Sequence record: MN850622.1 | DNA from: Escherichia phage mobillu | DNA length: 64,000 nt | Reading direction: 5' to 3' (one strand) | In this document: one piece after another, positions 7,957 through 61,650 of the stretch | Position numbering within the stretch: position 1 is the first letter of the stretch | How the letters are laid out: the number at the start of each line of letters is the position of its first letter | Notes under the pieces: generated by a model | Seen by the model: only the letters and a program-made list of their open reading frames with translations | Databases searched by the model: none | Told to the model about the DNA's origin: nothing | Program-made: the position numbers and the translations under genes

Positions 7957-7962
7957 TAAAAA

Positions 7963-7983
7963 GGAGACTTCGGTCTCCTTTCG
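7963..7983 (+). terminator. UUCG-tetraloop hairpin terminator after gene 41
   Basis: ggagaCTTCGgtctcc followed by short T-run. Confidence 0.55.
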
Positions 7984-7985
7984 GG

Positions 7986-8015
7986 GTTTACATCTTCCTC
8001 TAGGCATGATATGAT
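7986..8015 (+). promoter_or_regulatory. T4-type early promoter
   Basis: GTTTAC -35, TATGAT -10, spacer 18; directly after gene 41 terminator hairpin. Confidence 0.5.
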
Positions 8016-8044
8016 GTACTTACACCAACCAAGAGGAAAACATT

Positions 8045-8419
8045 ATGAATATGTCTCAAGCAATTTTTACTGTAATCACCGAAAACACAACTGTTGAAGT
8101 AGTTTCTCCACTGGCAACCTACGTTATTCTTGCTCCTAAAACTATTGTATCTCGTATGGAAAACATGGGCAAACGTATCGTACAAATAGTTGGAGCCGGA
8201 AATCAAAAACTTGATTATCTACGAACCATCAAAGCTTATGAACATTTCCAACTCGAAAAAGGTTCTCCTATCCAGGTAGAACTCGTAAATGGTGATATCG
8301 TTCGAGCAATGTTCCATCATTTCTATGCATTGAATGACCCATCTAAAGCGGTTCGTTTAATTGCATACGACGCAAACCAAAACGAAATCAACGCAGATGT
8401 ATCTAAATTACGTTTTTAA
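8045..8419 (+). CDS. hypothetical protein
   Basis: 124 aa ORF downstream of early promoter; no motif recognised. Confidence 0.5.
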   Translation: MNMSQAIFTVITENTTVEVVSPLATYVILAPKTIVSRMENMGKRIVQIVGAGNQKLDYLRTIKAYEHFQLEKGSPIQVELVNGDIVRAMFHHFYALNDPSKAVRLIAYDANQNEINADVSKLRF

Positions 8420-8448
8420 GTTTACTTCTCCAGTAGTTGTGTTATTAT
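8420..8448 (+). promoter_or_regulatory. T4-type early promoter with 10-bp inverted repeat around -10
   Basis: GTTTAC ... TATTAT; ccagtagttg / caactactgg flank the -10. Confidence 0.6.
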
Positions 8449-8474
8449 AGATCTATCAACTACTGGAGAACAAA

Positions 8475-8792
8475 ATGAAAACCATCGATTGTAAAGCAGA
8501 ATTTAAGATTTTTTATCACGGTTCAAGTAGTTCAGCTAACATCGAAAACATGCTTTGTCCTCCTGAAGAAACAGGAGTTCTGTCTGAAACTGGACGTAAG
8601 AAAAACTTGGATCGTGTATTCTTTACTGAAGATATCGGTTTAGCAAAGATTTATGCAGGACGAGCAGCACGCTCTTATGGAGGTGAACCACGTCTCTATC
8701 GAGTAATTTCTCCGGTAGATGTAGTTCAAATGAATGATACTAAAGGCGCTACAGTTTATCACGCTGAATGGGCATTTTGCGAGGAAATATGA
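8475..8792 (+). CDS. Arr-like (rifampin ADP-ribosyltransferase fold) small protein
   Basis: 105 aa; FYHGSSSSANIENML and RVFFTEDIGLAKIYA resemble Arr H-G-[ST]...YF(T/S) core; own early promoter with 10-bp inverted repeat. Confidence 0.45.
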   Translation: MKTIDCKAEFKIFYHGSSSSANIENMLCPPEETGVLSETGRKKNLDRVFFTEDIGLAKIYAGRAARSYGGEPRLYRVISPVDVVQMNDTKGATVYHAEWAFCEEI

Positions 8793-8977
8793 GCAAATTA
8801 ACTAAAGTTACTTTTATCGGTTGGTTTAAAAGCGGTGAGATGTTCACTAAAGATATCATGTTATCAGGTGATCGCGAAGAAATCGAGTGGGTTACGGTAC
8901 AACTTGCTGAAGTGAACAAAGCATTAGTTAAAGCATTTGTTAATGACGAGAAAGTTTTCGAAGCAGATTTTCGATAA
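8789..8977 (+). CDS. hypothetical small protein, translationally coupled to Arr-like gene (size/position compatible with dmd)
   Basis: ATGA overlap with upstream stop, GAGGAA upstream; 62 aa; T4 dmd is a ~60 aa gene in the same 41-61 interval. Confidence 0.4.
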   Translation: MSKLTKVTFIGWFKSGEMFTKDIMLSGDREEIEWVTVQLAEVNKALVKAFVNDEKVFEADFR

Positions 8978-8989
8978 TTTTAAATAGCT

Positions 8990-9019
8990 GTTTACAAGCC
9001 CCACATACTGTGTTACTAT
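8990..9019 (+). promoter_or_regulatory. T4-type early promoter
   Basis: GTTTAC + 18 + TACTAT, then CTATCAAC leader. Confidence 0.55.
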
Positions 9020-9047
9020 CTTTCTATCAACTACAGAGGAAATTGAA

Positions 9048-9416
9048 ATGAAAAAATTAATCGCTTTAGCAATGGTATTTGGATTAACCGGATGTGGTGC
9101 CCATGGCTTTATCCCTAATAATGTTGGCCAACTGATTTATAATCCGAATGTTAAACAGTACGACCAACCTAAAGTTGAAGTGGAAGACCCGGTTACTGTA
9201 GGTAATCGAATGATTCAAGCTGATGCCCATGCTCAACGTTATCGTGACTCTGATACTGTAGCATTGTCAAAAGAACAGCGCGTTAAAGAACATTGCTTAC
9301 AGGCTACTGAAATCGCATTCATTCGCTATGTTGAAACAACCGGTAAAGAGCCTACCCAGAAACAAATCGCGAATAACTACGTCCAGTGTATTGAACGTTT
9401 AAACAAATTTAATTAA
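9048..9416 (+). CDS. putative lipoprotein
   Basis: Signal peptide MKKLIALAMVFGLTGC with lipobox LTGC; 122 aa. Confidence 0.6.
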   Translation: MKKLIALAMVFGLTGCGAHGFIPNNVGQLIYNPNVKQYDQPKVEVEDPVTVGNRMIQADAHAQRYRDSDTVALSKEQRVKEHCLQATEIAFIRYVETTGKEPTQKQIANNYVQCIERLNKFN

Positions 9417-9419
9417 TTG

Positions 9420-9449
9420 GTTTACACCAAAGTTAAAATAAGATACTAT
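9420..9449 (+). promoter_or_regulatory. T4-type early promoter
   Basis: GTTTAC + 18 + TACTAT. Confidence 0.55.
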
Positions 9450-9477
9450 AAACATAACAAATCAAGAGGAAATTAAC

Positions 9478-9726
9478 ATGGAATTATTCGTAGCTAGTTC
9501 AGTAGCAGTTTTAATCGCAGGTATTGGTTCAATCATCATTTACATGTTGCCTTGGGTAATCGCACTTATTCGTGGCACAAAAAGCACAACAGCAATCTTC
9601 TTTGTATCTTTACTCTTTAACTGGACGATGGTTGGTTGGATTGGAACTTTAATTTGGTCTATCATTGCCGAAAAGAAATCGGCTCAGCAGCCTCAACAAG
9701 TAATTATTATTCGCGAAAAAGAATAA
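9478..9726 (+). CDS. small membrane protein resembling superinfection immunity (Imm) family
   Basis: 82 aa, two hydrophobic segments, central RGTKS and W-rich second helix (NWTMVGWIGTLIW). Confidence 0.4.
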   Translation: MELFVASSVAVLIAGIGSIIIYMLPWVIALIRGTKSTTAIFFVSLLFNWTMVGWIGTLIWSIIAEKKSAQQPQQVIIIREKE

Positions 9727-9730
9727 ACTT

Positions 9731-9760
9731 GTTTACATTATAGATGGACTATAGTATAGT
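9731..9760 (+). promoter_or_regulatory. T4-type early promoter with inverted repeat around -10
   Basis: GTTTAC; ggact-atagtatagt-agtcc. Confidence 0.55.
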
Positions 9761-9789
9761 AGTCCTATCAAATCAACTAAGGAGTTAAA

Positions 9790-10083
9790 ATGAAAAAGTT
9801 ATCATTGGCAGCAATCTTACTTGCAGTATCATGTGCACCGGCTCCAGTTACGGCAGGTTATGATAAAGACCTCTGTGAGTGGTCAATGACTGCAAATCAA
9901 GAAGATGTTGAACAACAAATCTTCTCTGATATCATGAACATCACTAAACGAGACCGTCCTAATATGGTTAATAAAGTTGTTGAACAACTTAAGTCTGGCG
10001 GTATCATGCAGTACAACTATGTTTTGTATTGTGACCCTAATTTCGATAACAAAGATATCGTAACCGAAATCACAGGTGAATAA
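9790..10083 (+). CDS. sp: Spackle-like periplasmic protein (superinfection exclusion / lysozyme inhibitor)
   Basis: 97 aa with cleavable signal peptide; size and position (before 61.2-like, upstream of 61) as T4 sp. Confidence 0.5.
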   Translation: MKKLSLAAILLAVSCAPAPVTAGYDKDLCEWSMTANQEDVEQQIFSDIMNITKRDRPNMVNKVVEQLKSGGIMQYNYVLYCDPNFDNKDIVTEITGE

Positions 10084-13913: not shown

Positions 13914-13922
13914 ATAATTTAA

Positions 13923-13947
13923 GGAATCCTTCGGGATTCCTTTTTTT
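13923..13947 (+). terminator. intrinsic terminator after soc
   Basis: ggaatcCTTCGGgattcc + TTTTTTT. Confidence 0.7.
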
Positions 13948-13956
13948 GTTTCTACA

Positions 13957-13986
13957 GTTTACAACAACTAAAAACTGTGTTAAGAT
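13957..13986 (+). promoter_or_regulatory. T4-type early promoter
   Basis: GTTTAC + 18 + TAAGAT; follows soc terminator. Confidence 0.5.
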
Positions 13987-14014
13987 ATTTTTACTTACTC
14001 AAGAGGAGAACAAT

Positions 14015-14242
14015 ATGTTAAATCGTTGGATTAAACCTAATAACACATTAGGTGCTTTGATTGCTCAAGAAGTTTCGTTGAAATACGGTCTTGGATATTA
14101 CGATGATGTAGTCGTACACTCATTCATGATGGATGGTGAAGACGTCAAATTTAATGTCGAAATCCGTTGGGATGATGGTGGTGTTCGTTTTGTTCGAGGA
14201 ACAATTAATGCTTACGATACTGAAGAAGTTGTTTGCTGTTAA
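14015..14242 (+). CDS. hypothetical protein
   Basis: 75 aa from ATG with AAGAGGAG RBS downstream of early promoter; track start 13946 lies in promoter. Confidence 0.5.
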   Translation: MLNRWIKPNNTLGALIAQEVSLKYGLGYYDDVVVHSFMMDGEDVKFNVEIRWDDGGVRFVRGTINAYDTEEVVCC

Positions 14243-15437: not shown

Positions 15438-15466
15438 GTTTACATTCCCTCCTCTCGTGTTATGAT
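15438..15466 (+). promoter_or_regulatory. T4-type early promoter
   Basis: GTTTAC + 17 + TATGAT. Confidence 0.55.
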
Positions 15467-15493
15467 AGGCTTATCTTTAAATGGAGGTCTATC

Positions 15494-16075
15494 ATGACAT
15501 GTCAATCTGAACTTCAAGAACGTGAATACCTAACAAATCTGATTGATAGCAAATTCACCCACCAAGAACAAAACATTCTCTGGGCTTGCACCGATTCTAA
15601 GGAAGACCCGGATTTCCACTATGAATTAGACCATCTTGTTCGTAAGCATATGACTTCTACAGTACCAGTAGAACTCTACCGTGGTGTAACTCCAGAAGAA
15701 GTAGAACGTCTTTCACTTCTTTCTGTTGGTTGCCATTGGTCTCCTGGACGAGTAACATCGTTCACAACTGATTTCAGTACAGCTCGTCAATTCTCCGGGA
15801 GATGGGAATATCAGACGTACACTATTCTTAGTCTCAGGAATGCTCCATTCATTTTTGATTACTACCAAAACATGATTAACATTGTACTCGCCGGAAAGAA
15901 CCCTAAGCATGTTATGGAAGAAACGCGTGTTGACGTCCTAGATATGATTGAATCTGAACAAGAGTACATGGTCTCAGGTATCTCTAGATTTGAGATTGTG
16001 GAAATTGAAGACTTAGAATATGACCCTTTATCTCGATTATACAAAATCATTCATTTGAAAATGTTGAATTTTTAG
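15494..16075 (+). CDS. ADP-ribosyltransferase, ModA/ModB family (ModB position)
   Basis: 193 aa; R-S-E triad: ELYRG, FSTAR, SEQEY; tandem with paralog; synteny next to srd. Confidence 0.7.
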   Translation: MTCQSELQEREYLTNLIDSKFTHQEQNILWACTDSKEDPDFHYELDHLVRKHMTSTVPVELYRGVTPEEVERLSLLSVGCHWSPGRVTSFTTDFSTARQFSGRWEYQTYTILSLRNAPFIFDYYQNMINIVLAGKNPKHVMEETRVDVLDMIESEQEYMVSGISRFEIVEIEDLEYDPLSRLYKIIHLKMLNF

Positions 16076-16104
16076 TGTACAAACTCTTCCAATGATGATA
16101 CTAT
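16075..16104 (+). promoter_or_regulatory. T4-type early promoter (variant -35 GTGTAC)
   Basis: GTGTAC + 18 + TACTAT, CTTTATCAAC leader. Confidence 0.45.
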
Positions 16105-16133
16105 TACCTTTATCAACCACAGGAGAAACCTAA

Positions 16134-16742
16134 ATGTTTATGCCGTATAACGAGTGTGAAATTGAAGAAATTGTTCGTCGTGCTCAAAACCCCGAATATC
16201 AAGATGTATTGCAGTACGAAATTGATAGTCAATTCAGCGACATTGAACAAAGTGTACTGTGGCAGTGTATGGAAAACAAGCCAGACTGTATTCAACAGGA
16301 GTTAAGTTCAATCGTTCGTAGAAATTGGACGTCTTCTGTTCCTGAGACAATGTATCGTGGAATCTCTAAGAAAACTATGGCCGCACTCGATGATAAAGGC
16401 ATTGGTAGTATTATTAAATTTGACAGAGTAATGAGCTTCAGCCCAGTGTTCGGTGTAGCACGTAACTTTGCTTCGTATAATTTTTACGGAACATTTAATA
16501 TGTTCTGCATCAAAGATGCACCATTTGCTTTCAACTTCCGTGAACATATGCTTAACATGATTCTGGCTGCGCCATCTTGTGAGTTCAATGGAGCTTTCCC
16601 TGAAGCGACAAGACGGTCTAATGCTAGACTTATATCCGACGAATGTGAATTTATGCTCCCTATAGGGACTACACTGCGTGTAGATTCTATTATTCAAGAT
16701 GGACGTTATACAATCTGGAATCTGTCTATTGTCAGTTACTGA
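16134..16742 (+). CDS. ADP-ribosyltransferase, ModA/ModB family (ModA position)
   Basis: 202 aa; MYRGIS, FSPVFGVAR, ECEF motifs; paralog of upstream gene. Confidence 0.7.
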   Translation: MFMPYNECEIEEIVRRAQNPEYQDVLQYEIDSQFSDIEQSVLWQCMENKPDCIQQELSSIVRRNWTSSVPETMYRGISKKTMAALDDKGIGSIIKFDRVMSFSPVFGVARNFASYNFYGTFNMFCIKDAPFAFNFREHMLNMILAAPSCEFNGAFPEATRRSNARLISDECEFMLPIGTTLRVDSIIQDGRYTIWNLSIVSY

Positions 16743-16816: not shown

Positions 16817-16845
16817 GTGTACACTACCTGAGGGCATGATATTAT
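16817..16845 (+). promoter_or_regulatory. T4-type early promoter (variant -35 GTGTAC)
   Basis: GTGTAC + 17 + TATTAT upstream of srd. Confidence 0.45.
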
Positions 16846-16894
16846 AAGCTTATCAGCTAAATGACTTAACGTCCGTAAGACAGAGGAAAATATT

Positions 16895-17641
16895 ATGTTA
16901 TCAAATAATAAAATTAACAAAATCAATCGTCGTCTTGACCACACCAGAGCTTCTGCGAAGAGACGCTCTAAGGATTTTAACTTAGACTTTAATTACCTTA
17001 AAAACATTCTTGATCAAAAGGTCTGCGCTTACTCAGGTGAATCTTTCAATAACTCTGTTGAAGGTGAGAAATTATCCTTAGAACGTTTTAATAACGATAT
17101 CGGCTACATTAAAGGTAATGTTATCCCGGTTAAGAAAAAATATAACACGGCTCGTTCTGATTTAACATTAGAAGAACTTATTGAGAAACGTGACGCTGTT
17201 GCAAGACGTATCGCTAATCCTTCTGCCCGTAAAGTAGAGAAACTTAATCTCGACGAGAAGAAATGGGCCCAAATTAAAAAGGTTTATGATACTATTTTAA
17301 AAATCCGAGCAAAACGTGAAAATCGTGTTAAGCATATGGCGAACATGATGAAAAATCAACCTTTATCTAACGAATCTAAACTTAGAATTGTTGCTTTGAA
17401 AGCACGCATTAATGGCTCACATCAAGCAGAAGGCCATGAACTTACTAAACTCAACGTTCTTCTTAAAGGCTCTGACTGGAAAACTAAAACTAAATTAACT
17501 GACGCTGAATCGCTTTTCGATACATATGATAAAGTTATCCAAGGTCTGCAACGCTTTGAAAAGATTGGTTTCATTGGTAAATTAAAATTGAAACGTGGCT
17601 TACCACTTAGCGCATCATTATTCCAACTGATTAAAGGTTAA
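16895..17641 (+). CDS. srd: Srd-like protein (sigma-70/32 decoy-like)
   Basis: 248 aa basic protein located between mod genes and dda as T4 srd. Confidence 0.5.
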   Translation: MLSNNKINKINRRLDHTRASAKRRSKDFNLDFNYLKNILDQKVCAYSGESFNNSVEGEKLSLERFNNDIGYIKGNVIPVKKKYNTARSDLTLEELIEKRDAVARRIANPSARKVEKLNLDEKKWAQIKKVYDTILKIRAKRENRVKHMANMMKNQPLSNESKLRIVALKARINGSHQAEGHELTKLNVLLKGSDWKTKTKLTDAESLFDTYDKVIQGLQRFEKIGFIGKLKLKRGLPLSASLFQLIKG

Positions 17642-19957: not shown

Positions 19958-19987
19958 GTTTACAACCAAGGATGGTTGGAGTATAAT
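19958..19987 (+). promoter_or_regulatory. T4-type early promoter
   Basis: GTTTAC + 18 + TATAAT; ccaagg...ccttgg-like repeat in spacer. Confidence 0.6.
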
Positions 19988-20018
19988 CTTTCTATCTTAA
20001 CCAAACAGGAAAAACATT

Positions 20019-20513
20019 ATGAATATCAATACTACGGCTACTTACATCCTGAAAGACGAAAAACAAATCAACTGGTACGGTGCTTCAGTGCGAGCTTATG
20101 AAAAGTTTTGTGAAATTTTAGGTGCCACTCAAGGTAATAGTTTCACTATTGTTAACTTCATCAAACAAGCTGAAGGCCCTTGGTTATTCTTAGAAATTAA
20201 AAATTCATACGGTACAATTTCTACTGCCGCCCTTCCAAGCACCGACTTTGAACTGTTGATTGAAGAAGTAGAACCTGTTAAAGACATCTGTATTGATATG
20301 GATATCGCTTGTATGTACGGTACTCTGATTAAGCCTATTGAGCCTACTGATTTGTTGTGTAAATATGTTTCAATTCGACGACCGTTCGCTGGTCCAGTAA
20401 ATGGCTGGGTGTCTGACCAGTGGATTGAAGAAGGTGTTGAACTTCTGAACGTTGTTCATGCAGGTGATTTTAGTGTAGTTCCACGTAGTGCTGTGGTTAA
20501 TATCCTTAATTAA
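20019..20513 (+). CDS. hypothetical protein, paralog family member 1
   Basis: 164 aa; C-terminal GWVSDQWIEEGVELLNVVHAGDFSVVP shared with two downstream paralogs. Confidence 0.55.
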   Translation: MNINTTATYILKDEKQINWYGASVRAYEKFCEILGATQGNSFTIVNFIKQAEGPWLFLEIKNSYGTISTAALPSTDFELLIEEVEPVKDICIDMDIACMYGTLIKPIEPTDLLCKYVSIRRPFAGPVNGWVSDQWIEEGVELLNVVHAGDFSVVPRSAVVNILN

Positions 20514-20515
20514 TG

Positions 20516-20545
20516 TTGTACATCCAAGGATGGATGGAGTATAGT
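20516..20545 (+). promoter_or_regulatory. T4-type early promoter (variant -35 TTGTAC)
   Basis: TTGTAC + 18 + TATAGT; near-duplicate of 19958 cassette. Confidence 0.45.
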
Positions 20546-20575
20546 GAATTCAATTTAAACAAAGAGAGAGAAATT

Positions 20576-21031
20576 ATGATTGCTATTGGTGAAATTAAGC
20601 GTGTATCGTCTGCATCTCGTTCTAAAGCTGCAGGTCGTCTAGTTGAAGTGGTAGGACTTCGTACTAATGGTACTGGTCGTGTTAAAGAAGTTAAAGTTCG
20701 AATCATTCCTAGTTCTGGAAAAACTGAAACTCAGTACGCTTACGTAAGTCCTAAATTTTTGGAAACTCATGTGAGCGCTCATTTTGCTTCTACTGAACCT
20801 AATGCACAGTTCAAATGGGCCCTTTGCAAAGGTGTTGAATTCCAGACTGATAAAGAATTTGACTTCATCGATGAATATGGTTATCCAAGCAAAACTGATA
20901 CTATGTGTGGCTTCATTAGTGACCAATGGGTTGAAGATGGTGAAAAGTTATACAATATCGTATTCTTAGGTGACTTCCGAGTTGTTAAAGAATCTGAAAT
21001 CACTCGCTATGTGTCTCCTCGTAAAGCTTAA
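20576..21031 (+). CDS. hypothetical protein, paralog family member 2
   Basis: 151 aa from internal ATG (track start lies in promoter); SRSKAAGRLVEV and GFISDQWVEDGEKLYNIVFLGDF motifs. Confidence 0.55.
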   Translation: MIAIGEIKRVSSASRSKAAGRLVEVVGLRTNGTGRVKEVKVRIIPSSGKTETQYAYVSPKFLETHVSAHFASTEPNAQFKWALCKGVEFQTDKEFDFIDEYGYPSKTDTMCGFISDQWVEDGEKLYNIVFLGDFRVVKESEITRYVSPRKA

Positions 21032-21464: not shown

Positions 21465-21493
21465 GTTTACTTCTCCTCTGGTTTTGATATTAT
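21465..21493 (+). promoter_or_regulatory. T4-type early promoter with 9-bp inverted repeat around -10
   Basis: GTTTAC + 17 + TATTAT; cctctggtt / aaccagagg. Confidence 0.6.
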
Positions 21494-21519
21494 AACCATA
21501 TCAACCAGAGGAGAATAAT

Positions 21520-22044
21520 ATGTTAGTTTACCGCGTAGAACGTAGTTTTTGTACTCAACGTGAATCATTACCAGGAATTGCTATCGAAGACGGTAAAGCC
21601 GTCAGAATTTGGGAAACCTCTTGGAATAAAGAACCTCGCTCGCCGTACGGTTGGTCGGGCACCGACAACTCTGAAGAAACATGGGAGTTCCTTGATAAAC
21701 ACGGAATACTCTCAGGTAACTTCTACCATCACGGCGACAACTATAATGTCCCTAATCGTCCTACAGTAAATGAAGACAAACTCCTTGAACAAAATATCTT
21801 AAGATACCATAGAATTGAGTACACATTTGAATTGAGTGAAGATTGGGCTCAAGGGTTCTATTTTGGATTTGAAAGTGTTGACGCGGTTTATGCATGGTTT
21901 GATGACCAGGTGGATGTTGAACTCTTGAAAGCTAAAGGATACTACATCGCGGTCTATGAAGCACCTGATTTCATCCTCGGAAGTTGTCAATTAATGTTCA
22001 GACGTTCATTGGCAGAACAAGTTGATTTTATTTTGCTAAAATGA
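21520..22044 (+). CDS. hypothetical protein
   Basis: 174 aa ORF after early promoter with GAGGAG RBS. Confidence 0.55.
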   Translation: MLVYRVERSFCTQRESLPGIAIEDGKAVRIWETSWNKEPRSPYGWSGTDNSEETWEFLDKHGILSGNFYHHGDNYNVPNRPTVNEDKLLEQNILRYHRIEYTFELSEDWAQGFYFGFESVDAVYAWFDDQVDVELLKAKGYYIAVYEAPDFILGSCQLMFRRSLAEQVDFILLK

Positions 22045-22073
22045 TGTACAACAACTATGGTCTATGATACTAT
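22044..22073 (+). promoter_or_regulatory. T4-type early promoter (variant -35 ATGTAC)
   Basis: ATGTAC + 18 + TACTAT; ggtctat / atagacc inverted repeat. Confidence 0.45.
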
Positions 22074-22101
22074 AGACCTATCAAAACAAGAGGAGAATAT
22101 T

Positions 22102-22329
22102 ATGAAACGTCAAATCATTAAAAACGTAACTACTGATTCAAACATCGATGAGTTTGAAGATGTTCTGTTTAATCCTGATTTAGTTGTTGTACAGAAAAAC
22201 TGGACTGAATTTTTATGCTACACTGAAGTGGTTTACGTTTACGAAAAACTCGGCGATGAAATGCCTATCTATGGTATCTTCCGTGAAATCACTGAAAATG
22301 GTACAACTTATTGGAAGGAAACTTACTAA
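22102..22329 (+). CDS. hypothetical protein
   Basis: 75 aa from ATG with AAGAGGAG RBS; track start 22057 lies inside promoter hairpin. Confidence 0.5.
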
Positions 22330-30680: not shown

Positions 30681-30710
30681 GTTTACAACTAAGTAGGACT
30701 ATGATATATT
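30681..30710 (+). promoter_or_regulatory. T4-type early promoter with inverted repeat
   Basis: GTTTAC + 18 + TATATT; taggact / agtccta. Confidence 0.55.
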
Positions 30711-30736
30711 AGTCCTATCTAAAAGAGGATAACATC

Positions 30737-31000
30737 ATGAAATTTAAATTTTTCTACGCAAAACATAAAGTAACAGGCGAATTTGTTTCAATGTACAACA
30801 CTGCAGATGACGAAGGGATGATTTATACCCATTTGGGTCTATCTCATTGGGACTCAGACGTGCCTTATATGTCATCTGAAGCCGAAATAACTCGTTTAGT
30901 TAACGGACATATGAACGACCATTTTAGTGTTATTCTTTCTAAAGACCTTAAAGAGGTTATCAACAAAGGATATATGGAACTTGCGGAAGTTGAGATATGA
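30737..31000 (+). CDS. hypothetical protein
   Basis: 87 aa after early promoter. Confidence 0.5.
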   Translation: MKFKFFYAKHKVTGEFVSMYNTADDEGMIYTHLGLSHWDSDVPYMSSEAEITRLVNGHMNDHFSVILSKDLKEVINKGYMELAEVEI

Positions 31001-31189: not shown

Positions 31190-31219
31190 GTTTACATCAC
31201 GGTAGGATTATGGTATAGT
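31190..31219 (+). promoter_or_regulatory. T4-type early promoter with inverted repeat
   Basis: GTTTAC + 18 + TATAGT; gtaggat / agtcctac. Confidence 0.55.
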
Positions 31220-31247
31220 AGTCCTACTGAAACATGAGGAACACAAA

Positions 31248-31448
31248 ATGGCTAAGCTTTTTAAAGATGTTGAAATTGGTGAAAAATTTGTTCTGAATAA
31301 TGGTCAGCAGCTTATTCGTGTAGCTTCTATCGCCGGACAAACTCATAACTGTATCGCCCCAACGTGTTGGACTCGATTCTTTATTGAAGATGACACTGAA
31401 TGTTTAACTGTTGAAGAGCTTTTTGAACGTTCTGATATAGCCGAATAA
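31248..31448 (+). CDS. hypothetical protein
   Basis: 66 aa after early promoter. Confidence 0.45.
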   Translation: MAKLFKDVEIGEKFVLNNGQQLIRVASIAGQTHNCIAPTCWTRFFIEDDTECLTVEELFERSDIAE

Positions 31449-31450
31449 AA

Positions 31451-31480
31451 TTGTACAAACTCTTGAGAGCAGAGTATAAT
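31451..31480 (+). promoter_or_regulatory. T4-type early promoter (variant -35) upstream of ndd
   Basis: TTGTAC + 18 + TATAAT inside gagca/tgctc inverted repeat. Confidence 0.5.
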
Positions 31481-31524
31481 GCTCTCATGGATTACAAAAA
31501 CATTAATCAATTGAGGAAATTAGC

Positions 31525-31971
31525 ATGTCCAAATATTTAACTCGTAAAGACCTTCTGGCAGTTGGCGGTGAAGTTGTTGCAGTAGTTCGTAATGGCGAAT
31601 ACGGTTCTGAAGTTTCTAAAGAGTTTCGTTCTCGTGAAGGTTTTTACTTCTTTGTTAAAGGTTCATCTGATTGGCGACAAGTAGCAGCACGATTCTTTGT
31701 AGGACGTCAACGTTCTAAACAAGGGTTGGATGCAATTCTTTCTCACATTCGTCAAGGCCGTTCGCAACTAGCCCGTACCATGGGCACTAACAATATTGAA
31801 TATGACGTAATCTTTGTTGCAGCTAAGAACATGAAACCACTGACCACTGGTTATGGTAAAGGTCAATTGGCTCTGGCATTCACTCGCAACCATACATCAG
31901 AATATCAAACACTCACTGAAATGAACCGTCTTCTGGCAGATAATTTCAAATTCATTCTGCAGAGTTACTAA
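31525..31971 (+). CDS. ndd: Ndd nucleoid disruption protein
   Basis: 148 aa; [57 protein letters not shown] match T4 Ndd. Confidence 0.8.
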
Positions 31972-33717: not shown

Positions 33718-33736
33718 GGAGCTTCGGCTCCTTTTT
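33718..33736 (+). terminator. intrinsic terminator after gene 52
   Basis: ggagcTTCGgctcc + TTTTT. Confidence 0.65.
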
Positions 33737-33757
33737 GTGCATTTTTCTCACAAAACA

Positions 33758-33786
33758 GTTTACACGTGCTTCAAACATGATATTAT
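33758..33786 (+). promoter_or_regulatory. T4-type early promoter upstream of motA
   Basis: GTTTAC + 17 + TATTAT, CTATCAA leader. Confidence 0.55.
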
Positions 33787-33825
33787 AAACCTATCAAAAC
33801 AAAACAGCCGAATTGGAGAAATAAA

Positions 33826-34458
33826 ATGTCTAAAGTTACTTACATCATCAAAGCTTCTGAAAACGCTCTGAATGAAAAAACTGCTGCAATAATGGTTTAT
33901 ATCATTAAGAACAACTTCACCACTGCTGCCAATGTCCGTGAAGCTCTGGAAGCAGAATACAATGCATCGGTTGTTAACTCTAACATTGGTGTATTGATTA
34001 AGAAAGGTTTGGTCGAAAAATCCGGTGATGGACTTGTAGCAACAGGCGAAGCAATGGATATTATCCAAAAAGCTGCAGACCTATTTGCTCAAGAAAATGC
34101 TCCAGAACTTCTTCAGAAACGTAACACCAGAAAAGCACGTGGAGTTACTCCTGAAATGCATGAATTAGCAAACTTTGTTTTTGAAAATATTAAAGATAAA
34201 GTTGAAGTTAAAGAAATTGGTGAAAACCGTAGTAACTTAGAAGTTCGATTTGCAAAACGAGTTCTAGGTATTCGTCAGATCGAAATTCGTCGAGATGGCG
34301 CTCTTAGAATCTTTGCATACAACATGTCAGAAACTGAATCAAAGCTGTTTACTTCTCTTGAAAATGATGTTAAGATTAAGATCGGTGGTAAATATACTTA
34401 CATTGACTTCCCTAATGTGTCCAAAGAAATCATTACCCTTGTAACTAACGTACTGTGA
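33826..34458 (+). CDS. motA: MotA middle-transcription activator
   Basis: 210 aa; MSKVTYIIKAS...VVNSNIGVLIKKGLVEKSGDGL...ENAPELL matches T4 MotA. Confidence 0.9.
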   Translation: MSKVTYIIKASENALNEKTAAIMVYIIKNNFTTAANVREALEAEYNASVVNSNIGVLIKKGLVEKSGDGLVATGEAMDIIQKAADLFAQENAPELLQKRNTRKARGVTPEMHELANFVFENIKDKVEVKEIGENRSNLEVRFAKRVLGIRQIEIRRDGALRIFAYNMSETESKLFTSLENDVKIKIGGKYTYIDFPNVSKEIITLVTNVL

Positions 34459-36122: not shown

Positions 36123-36273
36123 TCTTCAGAACGTAGTAGAGGCCGAACGTGAGCGTGAGGCTTTAGTCTATAATGAACTATTAGTTCAATTCTTGGTCTT
36201 ACACTCGTATGAACAGGAAGACTATACCAATTACGTTAAAAGCGTAGAAAAAGCCGTTTACAATCAACACTGA
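36112..36273 (+). CDS. hypothetical small protein
   Basis: 53 aa from internal ATG of track ORF 36058. Confidence 0.3.
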   Translation: MSHNLQNVVEAEREREALVYNELLVQFLVLHSYEQEDYTNYVKSVEKAVYNQH

Positions 36274-36285
36274 TAATGGTACTAT
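36256..36285 (+). promoter_or_regulatory. T4-type early promoter upstream of asiA
   Basis: GTTTAC + 18 + TACTAT, CCATATCAAC leader; lies inside preceding small ORF. Confidence 0.5.
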
Positions 36286-36319
36286 ATCCATATCAACTAA
36301 GTGGAATGAATAAAACGTT

Positions 36320-36592
36320 ATGAATAAAGACATTGAAATCGTACGTGAAATTATTACTATTGCTTCTATTTTGATTAAATTCTCTAGGGAAGATATTGTT
36401 GAAGACCGAGCAAGTTTCATCGGATTCTTGAATGAGATTGGAATTAAAAAAGATGGTCGGCAGCTAAATCAGAATTCGTTCAGAAAACTAATTACAAATT
36501 TAACTGCCGAAGAAAAGAAAACACTGATTAGTGAATTCAATGAAGGTTTTGAAAATATTTATCGTCATTTAGCGATGTATTCTAACAACTAA
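36320..36592 (+). CDS. asiA: AsiA anti-sigma-70 factor
   Basis: 90 aa; MNKDIEIVREIITIASILIKFSREDIVE...LNEIG near-identical to T4 AsiA. Confidence 0.9.
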   Translation: MNKDIEIVREIITIASILIKFSREDIVEDRASFIGFLNEIGIKKDGRQLNQNSFRKLITNLTAEEKKTLISEFNEGFENIYRHLAMYSNN

Positions 36593-46753: not shown

Positions 46754-46783
46754 GTTTACGCTTTCAAATGAGTGTGTTACTAT
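46754..46783 (+). promoter_or_regulatory. T4-type early promoter upstream of rnh
   Basis: GTTTAC + 18 + TACTAT in divergent 34/rnh intergenic region. Confidence 0.5.
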
Positions 46784-46815
46784 AGACAAGTTGACTAACT
46801 GAACAAGAGGTTCAT

Positions 46816-47733
46816 ATGGATTTAGAAATGATGTTAGATGAAGATTACAAAGAAGGTATTGCACTTGCTGACTTTAGTAACATTGCATTGGCAGCCGCAT
46901 TAAACAACTTTGAAGACGGCGATAAAATTACCGTTCCGATGGTTCGCCATGTAATCTTGAATTCAATTCGTAAAAACGTAGTGATGTTCCGTAAGCAAGG
47001 CTATACAAAATTTGTATTGTGTATGGATAATGCTACTTCGGGTTATTGGCGTCGTGACTTTGCTTACTATTACAAGAAAAATCGTAAAACCGATCGTGAA
47101 GCTTCAAAGTGGGATTGGGAAGGATATTTTACTGCACTCCATCAAGTTGTCGATGAGATTAAGAAATACATGCCATACGTTGTAATGGATATTGACAAGT
47201 ATGAAGCGGATGACCATATCGGTGTATTAACTAAATATTTGTCATTAGCTGGACATAAAGTATGTATTGTTGCATCGGATGGCGACTTTACACAATTACA
47301 CAAATATCCTAACGTTAAACAGTGGTCGCCACCACAGAAAAAATGGGTTAAAATTAAGAATGGTTCTGCTGAAATTGATTGCATGACTAAAATTCTTAAA
47401 GGTGACCGTAAGGATGGTGTTGCATCTGTTCGAGTTCGTGGCGACTTCTGGTTTACCAGAGTTGATGGTGAACGAACTCCAAGCATGAAAACATCAATTA
47501 TTGAAGCAATTGCTAACGACCGTTCTCAAGCCGAAGTATTATTAAGTGCAGAAGAATATAAACGGTATCAAGAAAATTTGGTTCTCATTGATTTTGATTA
47601 TATCCCTGATAATATTGCTTCAACCATTATAGAGTATTATAACTCATATAAACAACAACCTAAAGGCAAGATTTATTCATACTTTGTAAAATCTGGTCTT
47701 TCTAAATTAACAAGTGTAATTAATGAATTCTGA
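46816..47733 (+). CDS. rnh: RNase H (5-prime-3-prime exonuclease, FEN-like)
   Basis: 305 aa; length and N-terminal/central motifs as T4 RNase H; divergent from gene 34. Confidence 0.9.
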   Translation: MDLEMMLDEDYKEGIALADFSNIALAAALNNFEDGDKITVPMVRHVILNSIRKNVVMFRKQGYTKFVLCMDNATSGYWRRDFAYYYKKNRKTDREASKWDWEGYFTALHQVVDEIKKYMPYVVMDIDKYEADDHIGVLTKYLSLAGHKVCIVASDGDFTQLHKYPNVKQWSPPQKKWVKIKNGSAEIDCMTKILKGDRKDGVASVRVRGDFWFTRVDGERTPSMKTSIIEAIANDRSQAEVLLSAEEYKRYQENLVLIDFDYIPDNIASTIIEYYNSYKQQPKGKIYSYFVKSGLSKLTSVINEF

Positions 47734-50001: not shown

Positions 50002-50023
50002 GGGAGACTTCGGTCTCCCTTTT
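50002..50023 (+). terminator. intrinsic terminator after gene 32
   Basis: gggagaCTTCGgtctccc + TTTT. Confidence 0.65.
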
Positions 50024-50050
50024 GAGTATCTGTAAATTGCCGAAAAAGTT

Positions 50051-50079
50051 GTTTACTTCTTCCCTGGATGTGTTAGTAT
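50051..50079 (+). promoter_or_regulatory. T4-type early promoter
   Basis: GTTTAC + 17 + TAGTAT, CTATCAAC leader; after gene 32 terminator. Confidence 0.5.
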
Positions 50080-50108
50080 AGACCTATCAACAACATGAGG
50101 AAATCAAA

Positions 50109-50495
50109 ATGGAAATCGGAAAATCTTATATCATCAACCCTTTATTTAAAGACGACTTTGCTAACGAGTGCCGTTGCAATACAATAATGCTAAATTTAAT
50201 AGAGAAGCACGGACCTAGTTTTGTTGTAGATGAAATGGAAAGTGATGATTGTGCTGGTGAATGTGTGGTACGTGTAACTATGGAAGATGGCACTGAATAC
50301 ATGGCGAGTGGCCCACTTGAGACGTATTTTGAGATTTACTCTGAAGAATTCAAATACTTTACTGAGGTAGATTTAGTAAAGCCTCAACCTACTAACGAAG
50401 GTATAACTTTAGGTGTAACAAAAATCCATTGTATCGTAGATGAAACCAACGTCGACGAAATCATCGAACTTTTGCAAAAAACTTTTAAAAAGTAG
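50109..50495 (+). CDS. hypothetical protein
   Basis: 128 aa after early promoter. Confidence 0.5.
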   Translation: MEIGKSYIINPLFKDDFANECRCNTIMLNLIEKHGPSFVVDEMESDDCAGECVVRVTMEDGTEYMASGPLETYFEIYSEEFKYFTEVDLVKPQPTNEGITLGVTKIHCIVDETNVDEIIELLQKTFKK

Positions 50496-50524
50496 TTTAT
50501 AATAAGATAGGGTTATGTTATAGT
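50495..50524 (+). promoter_or_regulatory. T4-type early promoter with inverted repeat
   Basis: GTTTAT + 18 + TATAGT; gataggg / ccctatc. Confidence 0.5.
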
Positions 50525-50557
50525 AGCCCTATCAAATCAAAAGTGAAGGAGAATAAA

Positions 50558-50806
50558 ATGAGATTGCAACGCCAGAGCATCAAAGATTCTGAAGTTAGAG
50601 GTAAATGGTACTTCAACATCGTTGGTAAAGACGCTGAACTCCTTGAACAAGCTGAAGAAGCTTTACGTGAAATGGGTTGGAATGAAGAATGTGATGGATG
50701 TCCACTCTACGAAGATGGTGAAAGCGCAGGATTCTGGATTCACCACTCTGATGTTGAATCGTTTAAAGCTGATTGGAAAGTTGTTAAGAAAAATCTGAGG
50801 AAATAA
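50558..50806 (+). CDS. hypothetical protein
   Basis: 82 aa from ATG with GAAGGAG RBS; track GTG start lies in promoter region. Confidence 0.5.
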   Translation: MRLQRQSIKDSEVRGKWYFNIVGKDAELLEQAEEALREMGWNEECDGCPLYEDGESAGFWIHHSDVESFKADWKVVKKNLRK

Positions 50807-56108: not shown

Positions 56109-56519
56109 ATGAAAGATATCGCCGCCGAATATTCCTTTATTAAATATACAGAATTGGAGCTATTAGAAGATGCAACAATTAAAACAGTTGATGTCCCTAA
56201 TAAGAAAAATGTCATATACGCTATTGCTATAGATGACGAACTTGTGTATATTGGTAAAACCAAGAATTTAAAGAAACGCATTAACTATTATCGAACAGCC
56301 ATAAATCGAAAAGACCAGACTTCAGATTCAAGAAAATCACTTATGATTTTGGATGCCTTAATGCAAGGCAAAAAGGTTGAATTCTGGGCCCGCCAATGTT
56401 TTGACCTTTCAGTCACCAACGAACTTGGTTCAATGACCATCGCAACAATGGACCTTGAAGAACCGCTTTTTATCAAAAAGTTCAACCCGCCTTGGAATAT
56501 CCAACATAAGAAAAAGTAG
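56109..56519 (+). CDS. denA: DenA-like GIY-YIG endonuclease II
   Basis: 136 aa; VIYAIAIDDELVYIGKTKNLKKRINYYR GIY-YIG-like; position after nrdB as T4 denA. Confidence 0.65.
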   Translation: MKDIAAEYSFIKYTELELLEDATIKTVDVPNKKNVIYAIAIDDELVYIGKTKNLKKRINYYRTAINRKDQTSDSRKSLMILDALMQGKKVEFWARQCFDLSVTNELGSMTIATMDLEEPLFIKKFNPPWNIQHKKK

Positions 56520-56548
56520 TTTACATACCACAAGGATTGTGGTACAAT
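56519..56548 (+). promoter_or_regulatory. T4-type early promoter upstream of rnlA
   Basis: GTTTAC + 18 + TACAAT; ccacaa / ttgtgg repeat. Confidence 0.5.
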
Positions 56549-56566
56549 TTAAAAAAAACTAACTGA

Positions 56567-57700
<1,134 letters not shown>

Positions 57701-57702
57701 TG

Positions 57703-57732
57703 GTTTACAAACACCAAGGAAGGTGTTACTAT
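57703..57732 (+). promoter_or_regulatory. T4-type early promoter upstream of alc
   Basis: GTTTAC + 18 + TACTAT, TTATCAAC leader. Confidence 0.55.
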
Positions 57733-57762
57733 GGCTTTTATCAACAACACGAGGAGAAAATT

Positions 57763-58263
57763 ATGAATATGCAATTGATTACTAACGATATGGTCGTAAC
57801 CGCTTTTGGAGACACAACTGACGGAATCCGAGTCTTTAAGAAAGGACGTCCAGTTGGTTATCTTACTGACCTACGTGTTACACTGGCCAAAAATCTTAAA
57901 AAGAAAGTAAAACAAAAAGAGTATTCCACCCGATACGCTGAAGAGAAACGCGAAGCTATGCCAGAAGCAGTTAATGCCATGGTAGAATTTCTTCAAAACA
58001 ATTTGACTAAATATGACGCTAATGTGTTCATTAATATTAGTCAACCAAACGTACATATCGCAGGTATCAAATTCTATATTATTTGCGACCCTCTTACCGA
58101 CAAATTCAACCGTCTCGGAATCTCAAGCCCATATCATACAGCAGAAGAGTTGTGTGTATTGTTTGAATCATACAAAATCCAAACTGACGGGCCTAAAACA
58201 GTTCTTATCAATGGATTATCCCGAGACGAAATCATTGAGATTATTCAAACATGCTTAAAGTAA
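57763..58263 (+). CDS. alc: Alc-like protein (inhibitor of transcription from cytosine-containing DNA)
   Basis: 166 aa from ATG with GAGGAG RBS; position between rnlA and pseT and length as T4 alc; track start 57700 lies in promoter. Confidence 0.5.
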   Translation: MNMQLITNDMVVTAFGDTTDGIRVFKKGRPVGYLTDLRVTLAKNLKKKVKQKEYSTRYAEEKREAMPEAVNAMVEFLQNNLTKYDANVFINISQPNVHIAGIKFYIICDPLTDKFNRLGISSPYHTAEELCVLFESYKIQTDGPKTVLINGLSRDEIIEIIQTCLK

Positions 58264-58894: not shown

Positions 58895-59109
58895 CTAAAG
58901 AACAGCATGAATACATTAAAGGGCTTATCTATGAATCTGAAATGGCGGCTATGATTTATGGGCGCCAGATTCAACGATTAGAATCTTTGCCTCCGACTAA
59001 TGACCGATTGTTAGTTCAGTCTCGTGCTAATCTGAAAAATGAATATCAGAATAAGTGGGCAGTAGCGACTAAAGCTCTTCACGAGTATATTGAATCTTTA
59101 GTAAAATAG
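58885..59109 (+). CDS. hypothetical protein
   Basis: 74 aa. Confidence 0.45.
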   Translation: MPMTKEQHEYIKGLIYESEMAAMIYGRQIQRLESLPPTNDRLLVQSRANLKNEYQNKWAVATKALHEYIESLVK

Positions 59110-59138
59110 TTTACAAACTCTCAGGAGCAGAGTATAAT
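59109..59138 (+). promoter_or_regulatory. T4-type early promoter with inverted repeat
   Basis: GTTTAC + 18 + TATAAT; aggagca / tgctcct. Confidence 0.6.
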
Positions 59139-59166
59139 GCTCCTATGGATAATTGAGGAAATCTAA

Positions 59167-59465
59167 ATGAAAACATTACTAGAGAATTACATCAAACGGT
59201 CTGATGAGTATATTGATATCTGCCGTGGAATGACACTTGTAGATTATGACAAAGATGCAGCAAAGGCACTAGATGAAGCAGGTAAAGCTCTTCGTAAAGC
59301 TGCTAAAGAAAAAGGGTTGGATTTGCAACAACTCAAAAGTCATATGATTAAATTTATTTCTTCAAACGTTAGAAGTACGTCAATTAATAAAAACGTTGCT
59401 GAAATTAATAAAGACCGGCGCGAACTCAACATTCGTATTCTTGAAGCTTTCTTAGGAATCAAATA

Positions 59466-61235: not shown

Positions 61236-61265
61236 GTTTACAACATGGTGGAGTTGTGATACTAT
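61236..61265 (+). promoter_or_regulatory. T4-type early promoter heading the unit that contains DAHP synthase and cd
   Basis: GTTTAC + 18 + TACTAT. Confidence 0.55.
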
Positions 61266-61293
61266 AACTCTACCAACAAATGAGGAAATAGAA

Positions 61294-61530
61294 ATGCTAA
61301 GTGAAAACCCAATTACAGTACACGAATTTCAGATTAAAGTAAAAGAATTTGCTCAAGCACTCATCAATAAAGTGTCTGAACGTTTCCAAGATGCAACATT
61401 ACGAGTTATTCAAGAATCTCCACGTTCTTTTCTCATAATCGTTAATCCTAAAGATGGTGACCAAATTACTAATCTTAAATTATGCAGTGATGGTCTTGTT
61501 GAAGCAACTCGAGTATATGGATCACTATAA
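61294..61530 (+). CDS. hypothetical protein
   Basis: 78 aa after early promoter. Confidence 0.5.
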   Translation: MLSENPITVHEFQIKVKEFAQALINKVSERFQDATLRVIQESPRSFLIIVNPKDGDQITNLKLCSDGLVEATRVYGSL

Positions 61531-61650
61531 TGAGAGCTATCTCGTTACTATCGAGAATGCTCATAAATCTGAGCACTACCAACTTAGCCTGTCTAATCCG
61601 GTTAAAGGTATTGTTGAATCAGAATCTGTTTATATCTTCTAAGGATTGTT

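Follow-up and report, generated by a model that had tools for sequence, protein, structure and literature searches.

The 64,000 nt stretch of Escherichia phage mobillu DNA analysed here (sequence record MN850622.1; referred to below as the window) contains a series of early promoters of the T4 type, most of which have an inverted repeat at or beside the -10 element. Five of the 25 promoters listed in a first-pass annotation fall in the segment 7963-9760. The stem-loops formed by these repeats stay paired while their sequences change, are more stable on the sense strand and are absent from promoters that closely follow a canonical terminator. In our view, the stem-loop is probably a sense-strand RNA element for read-through transcripts, standing in place of an intergenic terminator; it would insulate or attenuate and, in a minority of cases, mask the ribosome site.

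A 5 kb query around 7963-9760 returned Mosigvirus (RB69-type) matches at 98.4-98.9% identity, with RB69 itself at 98.5%, and by this measure the source is an RB69-like T-even phage (Mosigvirus). The window is oriented as the reverse complement of the RB69 record and runs from upstream of uvsX, 40 and 41 through 61, modA/modB, motB, rIIA/rIIB and the tail-fibre genes to cd. Within it, 7963-9760 is the interval from gene 41 to sp; it extends to the sp promoter and includes ORF041c, ORF040c, dmd, imm.1 and imm. All 25 listed promoters were recovered with a slightly relaxed -35, each a σ70-type promoter on the + strand followed by a Shine-Dalgarno sequence (SD) and an ATG that opens a reading frame. 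The -35 sequence GTTTAC that had been attributed to them is exact in 19 of the 25, with near variants in the other six (Table 1). The pattern GTTTAC-N16-19-TANNNT occurs 25 times in the window compared with 4.0 +/- 2.0 times in dinucleotide shuffles. Known early genes driven by these promoters include imm, sp, modA, modB, srd, motB, cef, ndd, motA, asiA, rnh, rnlA and alc. Every one of the 25 sites is among the RB69 early promoters ('Pe') predicted by Nolan et al. 2006 (PMC1524935, Additional file 3), whose coordinates sit 14-15 nt upstream of the matching GTTTAC positions, so the promoters themselves were already catalogued.

The promoters are parts of cassettes of ~60-100 nt that lie between small early genes and share one anatomy: an A-rich UP-like tract (with an A-rich consensus 4-7 nt upstream of GTTTAC), GTTTAC, a spacer of 16-17 nt that often carries TGn, TAnnnT, a C-rich discriminator, a conserved TATCAAC start region, a GAGGA SD and an ATG ~28 nt beyond the -10. 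In most cassettes 26-31 nt separate the end of the -10 from the ATG, making the stretch from -35 to ATG a unit of fixed geometry. At the predicted start of most cassettes, C-rich positions -3 to -1 are followed by TATCAA(C), spanning ~-3 to +7 (for example 8452-8461, 9023-9032 and 9764-9773), and analogues are found in T4 (CAACTATCAAC), JS10 (AGACCTATCAAC) and RB49 (CCATC(A/G)A). Possible roles of this motif are a signal for initiation or promoter escape and an element of the 5' leader. The C-rich stretch from -3 to -1 was observed by Nolan et al. (PMC1524935) and fits a 'CCT-A-TCAAC' start.

The significance of the inverted repeats was assessed with chimeric promoters. Each promoter was cut halfway through the -10, left halves were combined with the right halves of other promoters, and 40-mers were folded. 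The mean minimum free energy (MFE) of the 40-mer around the -10 is -7.4 kcal/mol for native promoters and -4.3 kcal/mol for chimeras (z = -7.4, 0/20000 permutations). Since the chimeras keep the partly self-complementary promoter consensus, the excess reflects real complementarity within individual promoters, and the repeats reported by the first-pass annotation are indeed enriched over chance. The same test gave z = -7.2 for RB69, -8.0 for Mizar, -5.2 for JS10 (Dhakavirus) and -3.4 for T4 in the syntenic ~65 kb of each relative, and z = -5.3 for 25 RB49 promoters from the region in which promoter-early-stem-loop (PeSL) cassettes were originally found to be abundant. A column-pair complementarity map of promoters anchored on the -10 showed a small excess only for the main register; we prefer the chimera test because hairpins occur in about half of the promoters and in several registers.

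The repeats quoted in the first-pass annotation are all present (ccagtagttg/caactactgg at 8420, ggact/agtcc at 9731, gataggg/ccctatc at 50495, and gagca/tgctc at 59109 and 31451). Its statement that many promoters have a repeat around the -10 needs qualification: a strong hairpin (<= -8 kcal/mol) is found in ~11/25, a hairpin confined to the spacer in 3/25 by this count, some stem-loop inside the cassette in ~16/25 (roughly two thirds, which is above the chimera null) and none in 6-8/25. Folding of the 25 window promoters gave no hairpin at 8990, 9420, 13957, 33758, 46754 and 50051. The free positions that are complementary lie in the spacer on one side and in the discriminator, the early transcribed region or the SD on the other. 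Eight promoters (9731, 22044, 30681, 31190, 31451, 50495, 59109 and 61236) share a register in which the symmetry centre falls between -12T and -11A, with stems of 7-13 bp and loops of 4-8 nt that contain the -10; the 3' arm ends at ~-2 to +5, ~17-24 nt before the ATG (33 nt at 31451). The cassettes at 8420 (-20.6 kcal/mol) and 21465 (-23.7 kcal/mol) form long spacer-SD hairpins of 14-18 bp, and the -10 region is paired with the start codon at 15438 and, more weakly, at 16817. Hairpins within the spacer, with an AAGGA-type loop, are present in four cassettes (19958, 20516, 56519 and 57703). In these spacer-only hairpins (19964-19977, 20522-20535, 56526-56544 and 57710-57727) the loop is common to all four and the stems co-vary. 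The placements in RB49 are alike, with spacer-only (GGGGATC...GATCCCC) and -10-spanning (GGGAGTA-gtaaga-TACTCCC) examples. A search of Rfam detected no known RNA family in the window.

Orthologous stems were taken from gene-anchored upstream regions and from 13 further frd.1 loci in IMG/VR; single-protein IMG/VR queries with cd.2 and ndd.1 returned 2-3 near-identical loci each and were uninformative for covariation. At frd.1 there are at least four unrelated stems in one register (GATAGGGTTAT/GTAGCCCTATC, CAGGGTAAT/ATTACCCTG, (A)AGGCTAT/ATAGCCTT and ATGGGGCTAT/ATGGTCCCAT), and the pair GG-CTAT/ATAG-CC and GGTCTAT/ATAGACC differs by a compensated insertion. The hairpin of motB.2 that pairs with the SD is found in three genera with differing extensions (CTCCTCTGGTT/AACCAGAGGAG in the window, CTCCTCATG/CATGAGGAG in JS10 and TCCTCGGTTAG/CTACTGAGGA in T4). 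For alc, JS10 and T4 have an anti-SD hairpin and the window has a spacer-only hairpin. The ndd orthologue of JS10 has the stem CGAGAATCA/TGGTTCTCG, the cd.2 orthologue of T4 has GGTAGAG/CTCTACC, and the modB pairing recurs in T4 as ATGATAGC/GCTATCAT. Paralogous cassettes behave similarly: 20516 differs from its paralogue 19958 by a compensated A/T swap in the stem, and 59109 shows compensated stem changes relative to its paralogue 31451. Overall, the arm columns are low in information (~0.1-0.5 bits). As judged from these alignments, selection is for pairing and not for sequence, and such turnover of the stems with pairing kept points to a nucleic-acid structure and not to a sequence-specific operator.

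The pairing is also asymmetric between the strands. Of 54 unique hairpin promoters from five genomes, 40 fold more stably as the sense strand and 14 as the antisense strand, with mean stabilities of -11.05 and -8.68 kcal/mol, respectively (Wilcoxon p = 4e-5; 54 hairpins). G·U pairs account for 71/540 pairs on the sense strand and 33/514 on the antisense strand, and the sense-strand bias is 74-86% for native hairpins compared with 53-56% for composition-matched chimeras (p = 8e-4). As a sense-strand G·U pair is a C·A mismatch on the other strand, these differences suggest selection on the sense transcript and argue against a cruciform or symmetric recognition of the duplex.

If the hairpin handles incoming transcripts, promoters located just after a real terminator should not need one. 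A strong local hairpin (<= -8 kcal/mol) is present in 0/18 promoters that have a canonical terminator within 90 nt upstream and in 46/104 others, the direction being the same in all five genomes without exception (Fisher p = 1.1e-4, Mann-Whitney p = 2e-4; as the orthologues are not independent, the true significance is lower). In the window, the promoters at 13957, 33758 and 50051 fit this exclusion, as do those at 7986, preceded by a UUCG hairpin, and 46754, preceded by a divergent late gene; all five lack a strong hairpin. The + strand of the window has ten UUCG-loop hairpins, four of which directly precede a promoter (7960-7981, 13921-13942, 33718-33731 and 50002-50019). The association of promoters with UUCG terminators proposed in the first-pass annotation therefore stands for these four, none of which has a strong -10-spanning hairpin. 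Likewise, the label of hairpin terminator suits the separate UUCG hairpins but not the -10-spanning stems, which are without U-tracts: none of 13 local hairpins has more than 3 U in the 8 nt flank, and a terminator scan of the + strand calls none of them. The UUCG hairpin at 7960-7981, where the T-run is short, was also not called by the scan. The RB49 stems are mostly without U-tracts too, so that the published designation of these elements as terminators comes from the reporter assay alone. One RB49 promoter, Pe:112388, has a -10-spanning hairpin (AACGGGGACTAGT...ACTAGCCCCGTT) followed by TTCTGTT, a true terminator shape unlike that of any window cassette.

Transcription from σ70 promoters usually starts 7 nt after the -10. 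With this spacing, the 5' arm lies upstream of the predicted start of the cassette's own transcript, in most cases together with the entire 3' arm. The cassette's own mRNA would then be without the 5' arm, and the stem-loop could form only in RNA that reads through from upstream. In the literature library searched, no genome-wide 5'- or 3'-end maps were found for T4 or RB69.

Two modes of action are envisaged. In the first, the compact hairpin around the -10, ending ~20 nt before the AUG, would fold the upstream sequence away and leave the ribosome site no less accessible than it is in the transcript of the cassette itself; it may also pause or attenuate the polymerase or protect the 3' end of the upstream message. 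In the second, which would apply to a minority of cassettes (ORF040c, motB.2 and modB and, more weakly, ORF041c and srd), the SD or AUG itself serves as the 3' arm, and the gene would be translated solely from transcripts of its own promoter. Either mode would make the promoter and its small gene an autonomous module. By extension, the fate of an early mRNA might be set by where it starts, with RNA from upstream either masked (ORF040c, motB.2 and modB; alc in T4 and JS10) or insulated by a hairpin, a general and evolvable insulator logic for T-even phages that we put forward tentatively and with less than even confidence. Under such a logic, translation of some immediate-early proteins would be strictly limited to the brief activity of their own promoter, and the modules would work in any genomic context.

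The expected effect on the ribosome site was calculated by partition-function folding of the cassette's own transcript (start to ATG+9) and of the read-through RNA, taking the unpaired probability of the region from SD to AUG (translation-initiation region; TIR). For promoters with local hairpins (n=46) the TIR is unpaired with a probability of 0.73 in read-through RNA compared with 0.80 in the own transcript and 0.60 in chimeras. For hairpin-less promoters (n=72) the value falls from 0.70 in the own transcript to 0.49 in read-through RNA. Pairing of the SD or AUG in the longer transcript is predicted for a minority of cassettes, namely 8420 (0.87 in the own transcript and 0.27 in read-through RNA), 21465 (0.90 and 0.35) and 15438 (0.62 and 0.19), and a similar drop is calculated for 16817 (0.63 and 0.31). 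Native promoters fall in the extreme deciles of the chimera distributions in 41 of 118 cases compared with 23.6 expected (p = 1e-4). We treat the accessibility of the TIR as a predicted consequence of the stem-loops and not as independent proof. Complementarity between the spacer and the TIR exceeds that of shuffled spacers (z = -4.3). At 8420 the spacer-SD pairing is matched in 0/100 shuffles. At 7986 the spacer sequence TTCCTCT (7995-8001) can pair with the SD AGAGGAA, a moderate anti-SD match of 7 bp with a duplex energy of -12.1 kcal/mol that is equalled in 1% of shuffles.

Cassettes of this kind have been described before. The PeSL cassettes of RB49 and phi1 are enriched in hyperplastic regions and have been implicated in the shuffling of open reading frames (ORFs) and in mini-circle formation (Arbiol et al. 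2010, PMC2839356), and the stem-loop was called a terminator or attenuator from one lacZ assay (PMC2839356). PeSLs were later extended to PST/T4 (TTTACW-N17-TAYWAT) and nt-1/KVP40 and suggested for all T4-like phages (Comeau et al. 2014, PMC4122927). Neither paper (PMC2839356, PMC4122927) analysed an RB69-type phage. The resemblance to PeSLs noted in the first-pass annotation holds for each sequence feature: the promoter, the A-rich upstream tract, the stem-loop at the spacer or -10, and the SD with its ATG. Like those of RB49/phi1, PST/T4 and nt-1/KVP40, the window cassettes are sited between small early genes; they may also share the preference for variable regions and the association with gene indels and swaps, and their promoter consensus is the published T4/PST form TTTACW-N17-TAYWAT. 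However, the window stems are AT-richer and far more variable than the G(n)-loop-C(n) stems of RB49, and their lack of U-tracts gives no support to the terminator role. Nolan et al. (PMC1524935) catalogued the RB69 promoter motifs without mention of stem-loops. The RB69 promoters (2006) and the combination of promoter and stem-loop in other T4-type phages (2010, 2014) are thus already known; relative to the PeSL papers, the strand bias, the absence beside canonical terminators, the predicted start inside the hairpin and the SD/AUG-masking subset are new, and our functional reading of the stem-loop would be new in emphasis.

A second precedent is provided by the T4 genes e, soc, 49 and I-TevI, in which hairpins sequester the ribosome-binding site and a promoter lies inside the hairpin (review PMC3014915). 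The arrangement predicted here for ORF040c, motB.2 and modB is similar in that a long transcript would hide the SD or AUG and the proximal transcript would leave it open; if transcription starts where predicted, the proximal transcript would be without the 5' arm, which is formed by the spacer or the -10. In the known T4 cases, however, the internal promoter is late or middle and a late gene is silenced early in infection, whereas the window cassettes carry a σ70 early promoter and neither a late (gp55) nor a middle one. The logic would therefore be reversed, tying translation to the immediate-early period.

The main alternative is that the stem-loops are efficient terminators or attenuators, as proposed for the PeSLs of RB49 and phi1, and that each gene is transcribed essentially from its own promoter. 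In a lacZ assay, one PeSL stem-loop lowered expression to a degree similar to the rrnB T1 terminator (PMC2839356), although altered message stability or translation could have given the same result as termination. The -10-spanning hairpins are like intrinsic terminators in being intergenic and formed on the sense strand, and the mutual exclusion of the two upstream of promoters is as expected if one replaces the other; RB49 Pe:112388, with GTTTTCTGTT after its -10-spanning hairpin, has a true terminator shape. The window stems differ from intrinsic terminators, however, in being embedded in a promoter and in having weaker, AT-rich stems (-9 to -17 kcal/mol) with no U-rich 3' flank (maximum 3 U in 8 nt), and the anti-SD subset is sensible only if read-through RNA reaches the downstream gene. 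For these reasons we regard termination as the general role as rather unlikely. A role at the level of DNA, in which hairpins or cruciforms act as recombination hot spots that mobilise promoter-gene modules as mini-circles without any RNA function, would account for the indel and replacement junctions inside cassettes, for the RB49 mini-circle crossovers mapped to the stem-loop region (PMC2839356) and for the report of an inverted hairpin loop at the T4 cd.2 promoter. It is nevertheless improbable, because the sense-strand G·U pairs are C·A on the other strand and make poor cruciforms, because recombination needs sequence common to the cassettes and the arms are their most variable part, and because the avoidance of terminator-preceded promoters would be left unexplained.

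The first-pass annotation had also raised the possibility that the palindromes are operators for a dimeric regulator. Such a regulator might come from the phage or the host, for example as the agent of early-promoter shut-off, which in T4 has no settled mechanism. Eight promoters do have their symmetry centre at the same place, -12/-11, and one subfamily (9731, 30681 and 31190) has similar arms (AGGACTA/TAGTCCT). Yet no half-site is common to the promoters or their orthologues, the arms differing widely at ~0.1-0.5 bits per column; arm lengths and loop sizes vary, a third of the promoters have no repeat at all, and the pairing is strand-asymmetric with G·U pairs favouring the sense strand. We consider this proposal unsupported and very improbable. 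Least credible of all is an absence of selection for pairing, with the repeats a by-product of the self-complementary, AT-rich consensus of strong promoters (TGnTAnnnT and neighbours). Column -4 (counting from where the -10 hexamer begins) does pair with +5 in 96% of promoters, as the column composition predicts, but the chimera test preserves the consensus and still gives z = -7, the stems reach into non-conserved columns, and differences among orthologues and paralogues are compensated. Two further candidates were rejected. RNase III processing sites are unlikely with stems of merely 7-14 bp, and a divergent antisense promoter arising from the palindrome (bottom-strand TAnnnT with TTGATA, the reverse complement of TATCAA) was discarded since the spacing would be 9 nt.

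Several observations weigh against a role in read-through RNA. Among the hairpin-less 6-8/25 promoters are some where read-through is expected (8990 and 9420), and the nearly perfect G/C stems of RB49 show no strand bias. Terminator activity has been reported for one G/C-rich PeSL stem (PMC2839356), and our sequence analysis is silent on whether the AT-richer stems here behave likewise. The transcription start sites (TSSs) used for this phage and for RB69 are predictions and not mapped RNA ends. The orthologues are not independent, and the p-values across genomes are consequently optimistic. The TIR accessibility result is partly true by construction, as an upstream half that folds on itself cannot pair elsewhere. 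Anti-SD complementarity is not above the chimera null, because SDs are generic, and is strong in just 2-4 cases per genome; we therefore claim masking only where gene-specific extensions exist. Finally, the breakpoint enrichment described below was measured against coverage of the whole window and not of its intergenic DNA, the small space to which the ends of any viable gene indel are confined anyway.

The prediction that small genes are shuffled as modules between the cassettes is partly borne out by individual gene indels and swaps; the enrichment of breakpoints lends it partial support. Cassettes make up 3.9% of the window and, with this whole-window coverage as the null, contain 4/12 breakpoints relative to RB69, 5/10 relative to Mizar and 9/92 relative to JS10. 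Mizar is without ORF041c, the junctions falling at window positions 7992 and 8440, inside the cassettes at 7986 and 8420, and the spacer of Mizar represents a third variant. Gene 61.4 is missing from the window, where the indel boundary, 8969/8970, lies a short way upstream of the cassette at 8990. In Mizar, imm.1 has a different, hairpin-bearing promoter joined at TATCAACTA. In T4 imm.1 and imm adjoin gene 43, and in JS10 an 'immunity to superinfection' gene occupies the same place. The ~60 nt of sequence common to the cassettes would provide homology for gene gain, loss and swaps.

Table 1. Early promoter cassettes and associated UUCG-loop hairpins in the window (Pe, RB69 early promoter of Nolan et al.).
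Feature	Position	Strand	Promoter signals	Predicted structure
UUCG-loop hairpin, gene 41 end	7960..7981	+	Directly upstream of promoter 7986	AAAGGAGAC-TTCG-GTCTCCTTT; terminator-like
ORF041c early promoter cassette	7986..8047	+	-35 7986-7991, -10 8010-8015, predicted TSS ~8022, ATG 8045; RB69 Pe:20971	Weak long-range hairpin only
ORF040c early promoter cassette	8420..8477	+	-35 8420-8425, -10 8443-8448, predicted TSS ~8455, ATG 8475; Pe:20537	14-bp hairpin TTCTCCAGTAGTTG (8426-8439)/CAACTACTGGAGAA (8457-8470), -20.6 kcal/mol; 3' arm contains SD
imm.1 early promoter cassette	8990..9050	+	-35 8990-8995, -10 9014-9019, ATG 9048; Pe:19761	No hairpin
imm early promoter cassette	9420..9480	+	-35 9420-9425, -10 9444-9449, ATG 9478; Pe:19331	No hairpin
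sp early promoter cassette	9731..9792	+	-35 9731-9736, -10 9755-9760, predicted TSS ~9767, ATG 9790; Pe:19020	Local hairpin GATGGACTAT (9743-9752)/GTAGTCCTATC (9759-9769) around -10, -11.1 kcal/mol; symmetry centre between -12 and -11
UUCG terminator and mrh.2 promoter	13921..14017	+	-35 13957, -10 13981-13986	Canonical terminator 13921-13942 plus T-run; no promoter hairpin
modB cassette	15438..15497	+		-10 region TTATGATAGGCT (15460-15471) pairs with GGTCTATCATGA (15486-15497), including start codon; predicted fold -14.4 kcal/mol
modA cassette	16075..16136	+	-35 GTGTAC	Weak structure only
srd cassette	16817..16898	+	-35 GTGTAC	Long-range pairing of -10 region with AUG region, weak to moderate
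motB.1 cassette	19958..20021	+		Spacer hairpin AACCA-aggA-TGGTT, AAGGA loop
motB cassette	20516..20578	+	-35 TTGTAC	Spacer hairpin ATCCA-agga-TGGAT
motB.2 cassette	21465..21522	+		18-bp interrupted hairpin TTCTCCTCTGGTT.. (21471-21490)/..AACCAGAGGAGAA (21498-21515), SD masked; -23.7 kcal/mol
cef cassette	22044..22104	+	-35 ATGTAC	Local hairpin GGTCTATG/TATAGACC around -10
ORF270c cassette	30681..30739	+		Local hairpin GTAGGACTA/TAGTCCTAT
ndd.1 cassette	31190..31250	+		12-bp local hairpin CGGTAGGATTAT/GTAGTCCTACTG, -16.1 kcal/mol
ndd cassette	31451..31527	+	-35 TTGTAC	Local hairpin TGAGAGCA/TGCTCTCA
UUCG terminator and motA promoter	33718..33828	+	-35 33758	Terminator 33718-33731 plus T-run; no promoter hairpin
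asiA cassette	36256..36322	+		Weak hairpin
rnh cassette	46754..46818	+	After divergent (late) gene 34 region	No strong hairpin
UUCG terminator and ORF245c promoter	50002..50111	+	-35 50051, ATG 50109	Terminator 50002-50019; no strong promoter hairpin
frd.1 cassette	50495..50560	+	-35 GTTTAT	11-bp local hairpin GATAGGGTTAT/GTAGCCCTATC, -16.3 kcal/mol
rnlA cassette	56519..56578	+		Spacer-only hairpin TACCACAA/TTGTGGTA
alc cassette	57703..57765	+		Spacer-only hairpin AACACC/GGTGTT
ORF231c cassette	59109..59169	+		Local hairpin AGGAGCA/TGCTCCT
cd.2 cassette	61236..61296	+		13-bp local hairpin TGGTGGAGTTGTG/TATAACTCTACCA, three G·U pairs; -16.9 kcal/mol

Some further features of the cassettes deserve comment. 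The rnlA promoter of T4 keeps the same hairpin as the window (CCACA..TGTGG) and has a MotA box (TGCTT) replacing the -35, and is in effect a middle-promoter version of the cassette. In the T4 record (NC_000866 133293-133320, orthologous to window 61246-61275) a 14-nt 'inverted complement' correction is annotated at the early promoter between cd.2 and cd.3. The corrected segment, TTGTGATATTATAG, holds the -10 and is exactly the loop between perfect 7-bp arms (GGTAGAG/CTCTACC), which means that the loop was once sequenced in the flipped orientation. A genuine polymorphism could explain this, as could a repeat-mediated inversion favoured when a toxic promoter was cloned. A perfect GTTTAC-N18-TAAGAT with a TTCTC spacer is found at 34347-34376 (+) within coding sequence, away from any SD or ATG. 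It is outside both the list of the first-pass annotation and that of Nolan et al. and may be an internal promoter or the remnant of a cassette.

Two neighbouring genes are also of note. ORF040c (8475-8792, +), the gene behind the SD-masking hairpin, has no Pfam match, and its DNA relatives occur in T4-like phages of Klebsiella, Yersinia, Acinetobacter, Citrobacter, Enterobacter and Aeromonas; on this distribution its product is a widely conserved early protein. In the cd region, 61651-62643 (+) encodes a 330-residue DAHP synthase (PF00793, E = 1.8e-75), an auxiliary gene of the aromatic amino-acid pathway. The gene is also present in Mizar and is not present in RB69, relative to which the window has a 1.1 kb insertion at 61539-62640.

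What this analysis adds to the known cassettes is that the stem-loop appears to be selected for pairing and on the sense strand, is never found beside a real terminator and is placed as if for read-through RNA alone. This reading offers a testable alternative to the published designation as a terminator and argues against an operator. If it is correct, it would account for the independent expression of dozens of densely packed early genes and for the ease with which modules move between phages, which would be useful both for phage genome engineering and for reading the early regions of new T4-like genomes.

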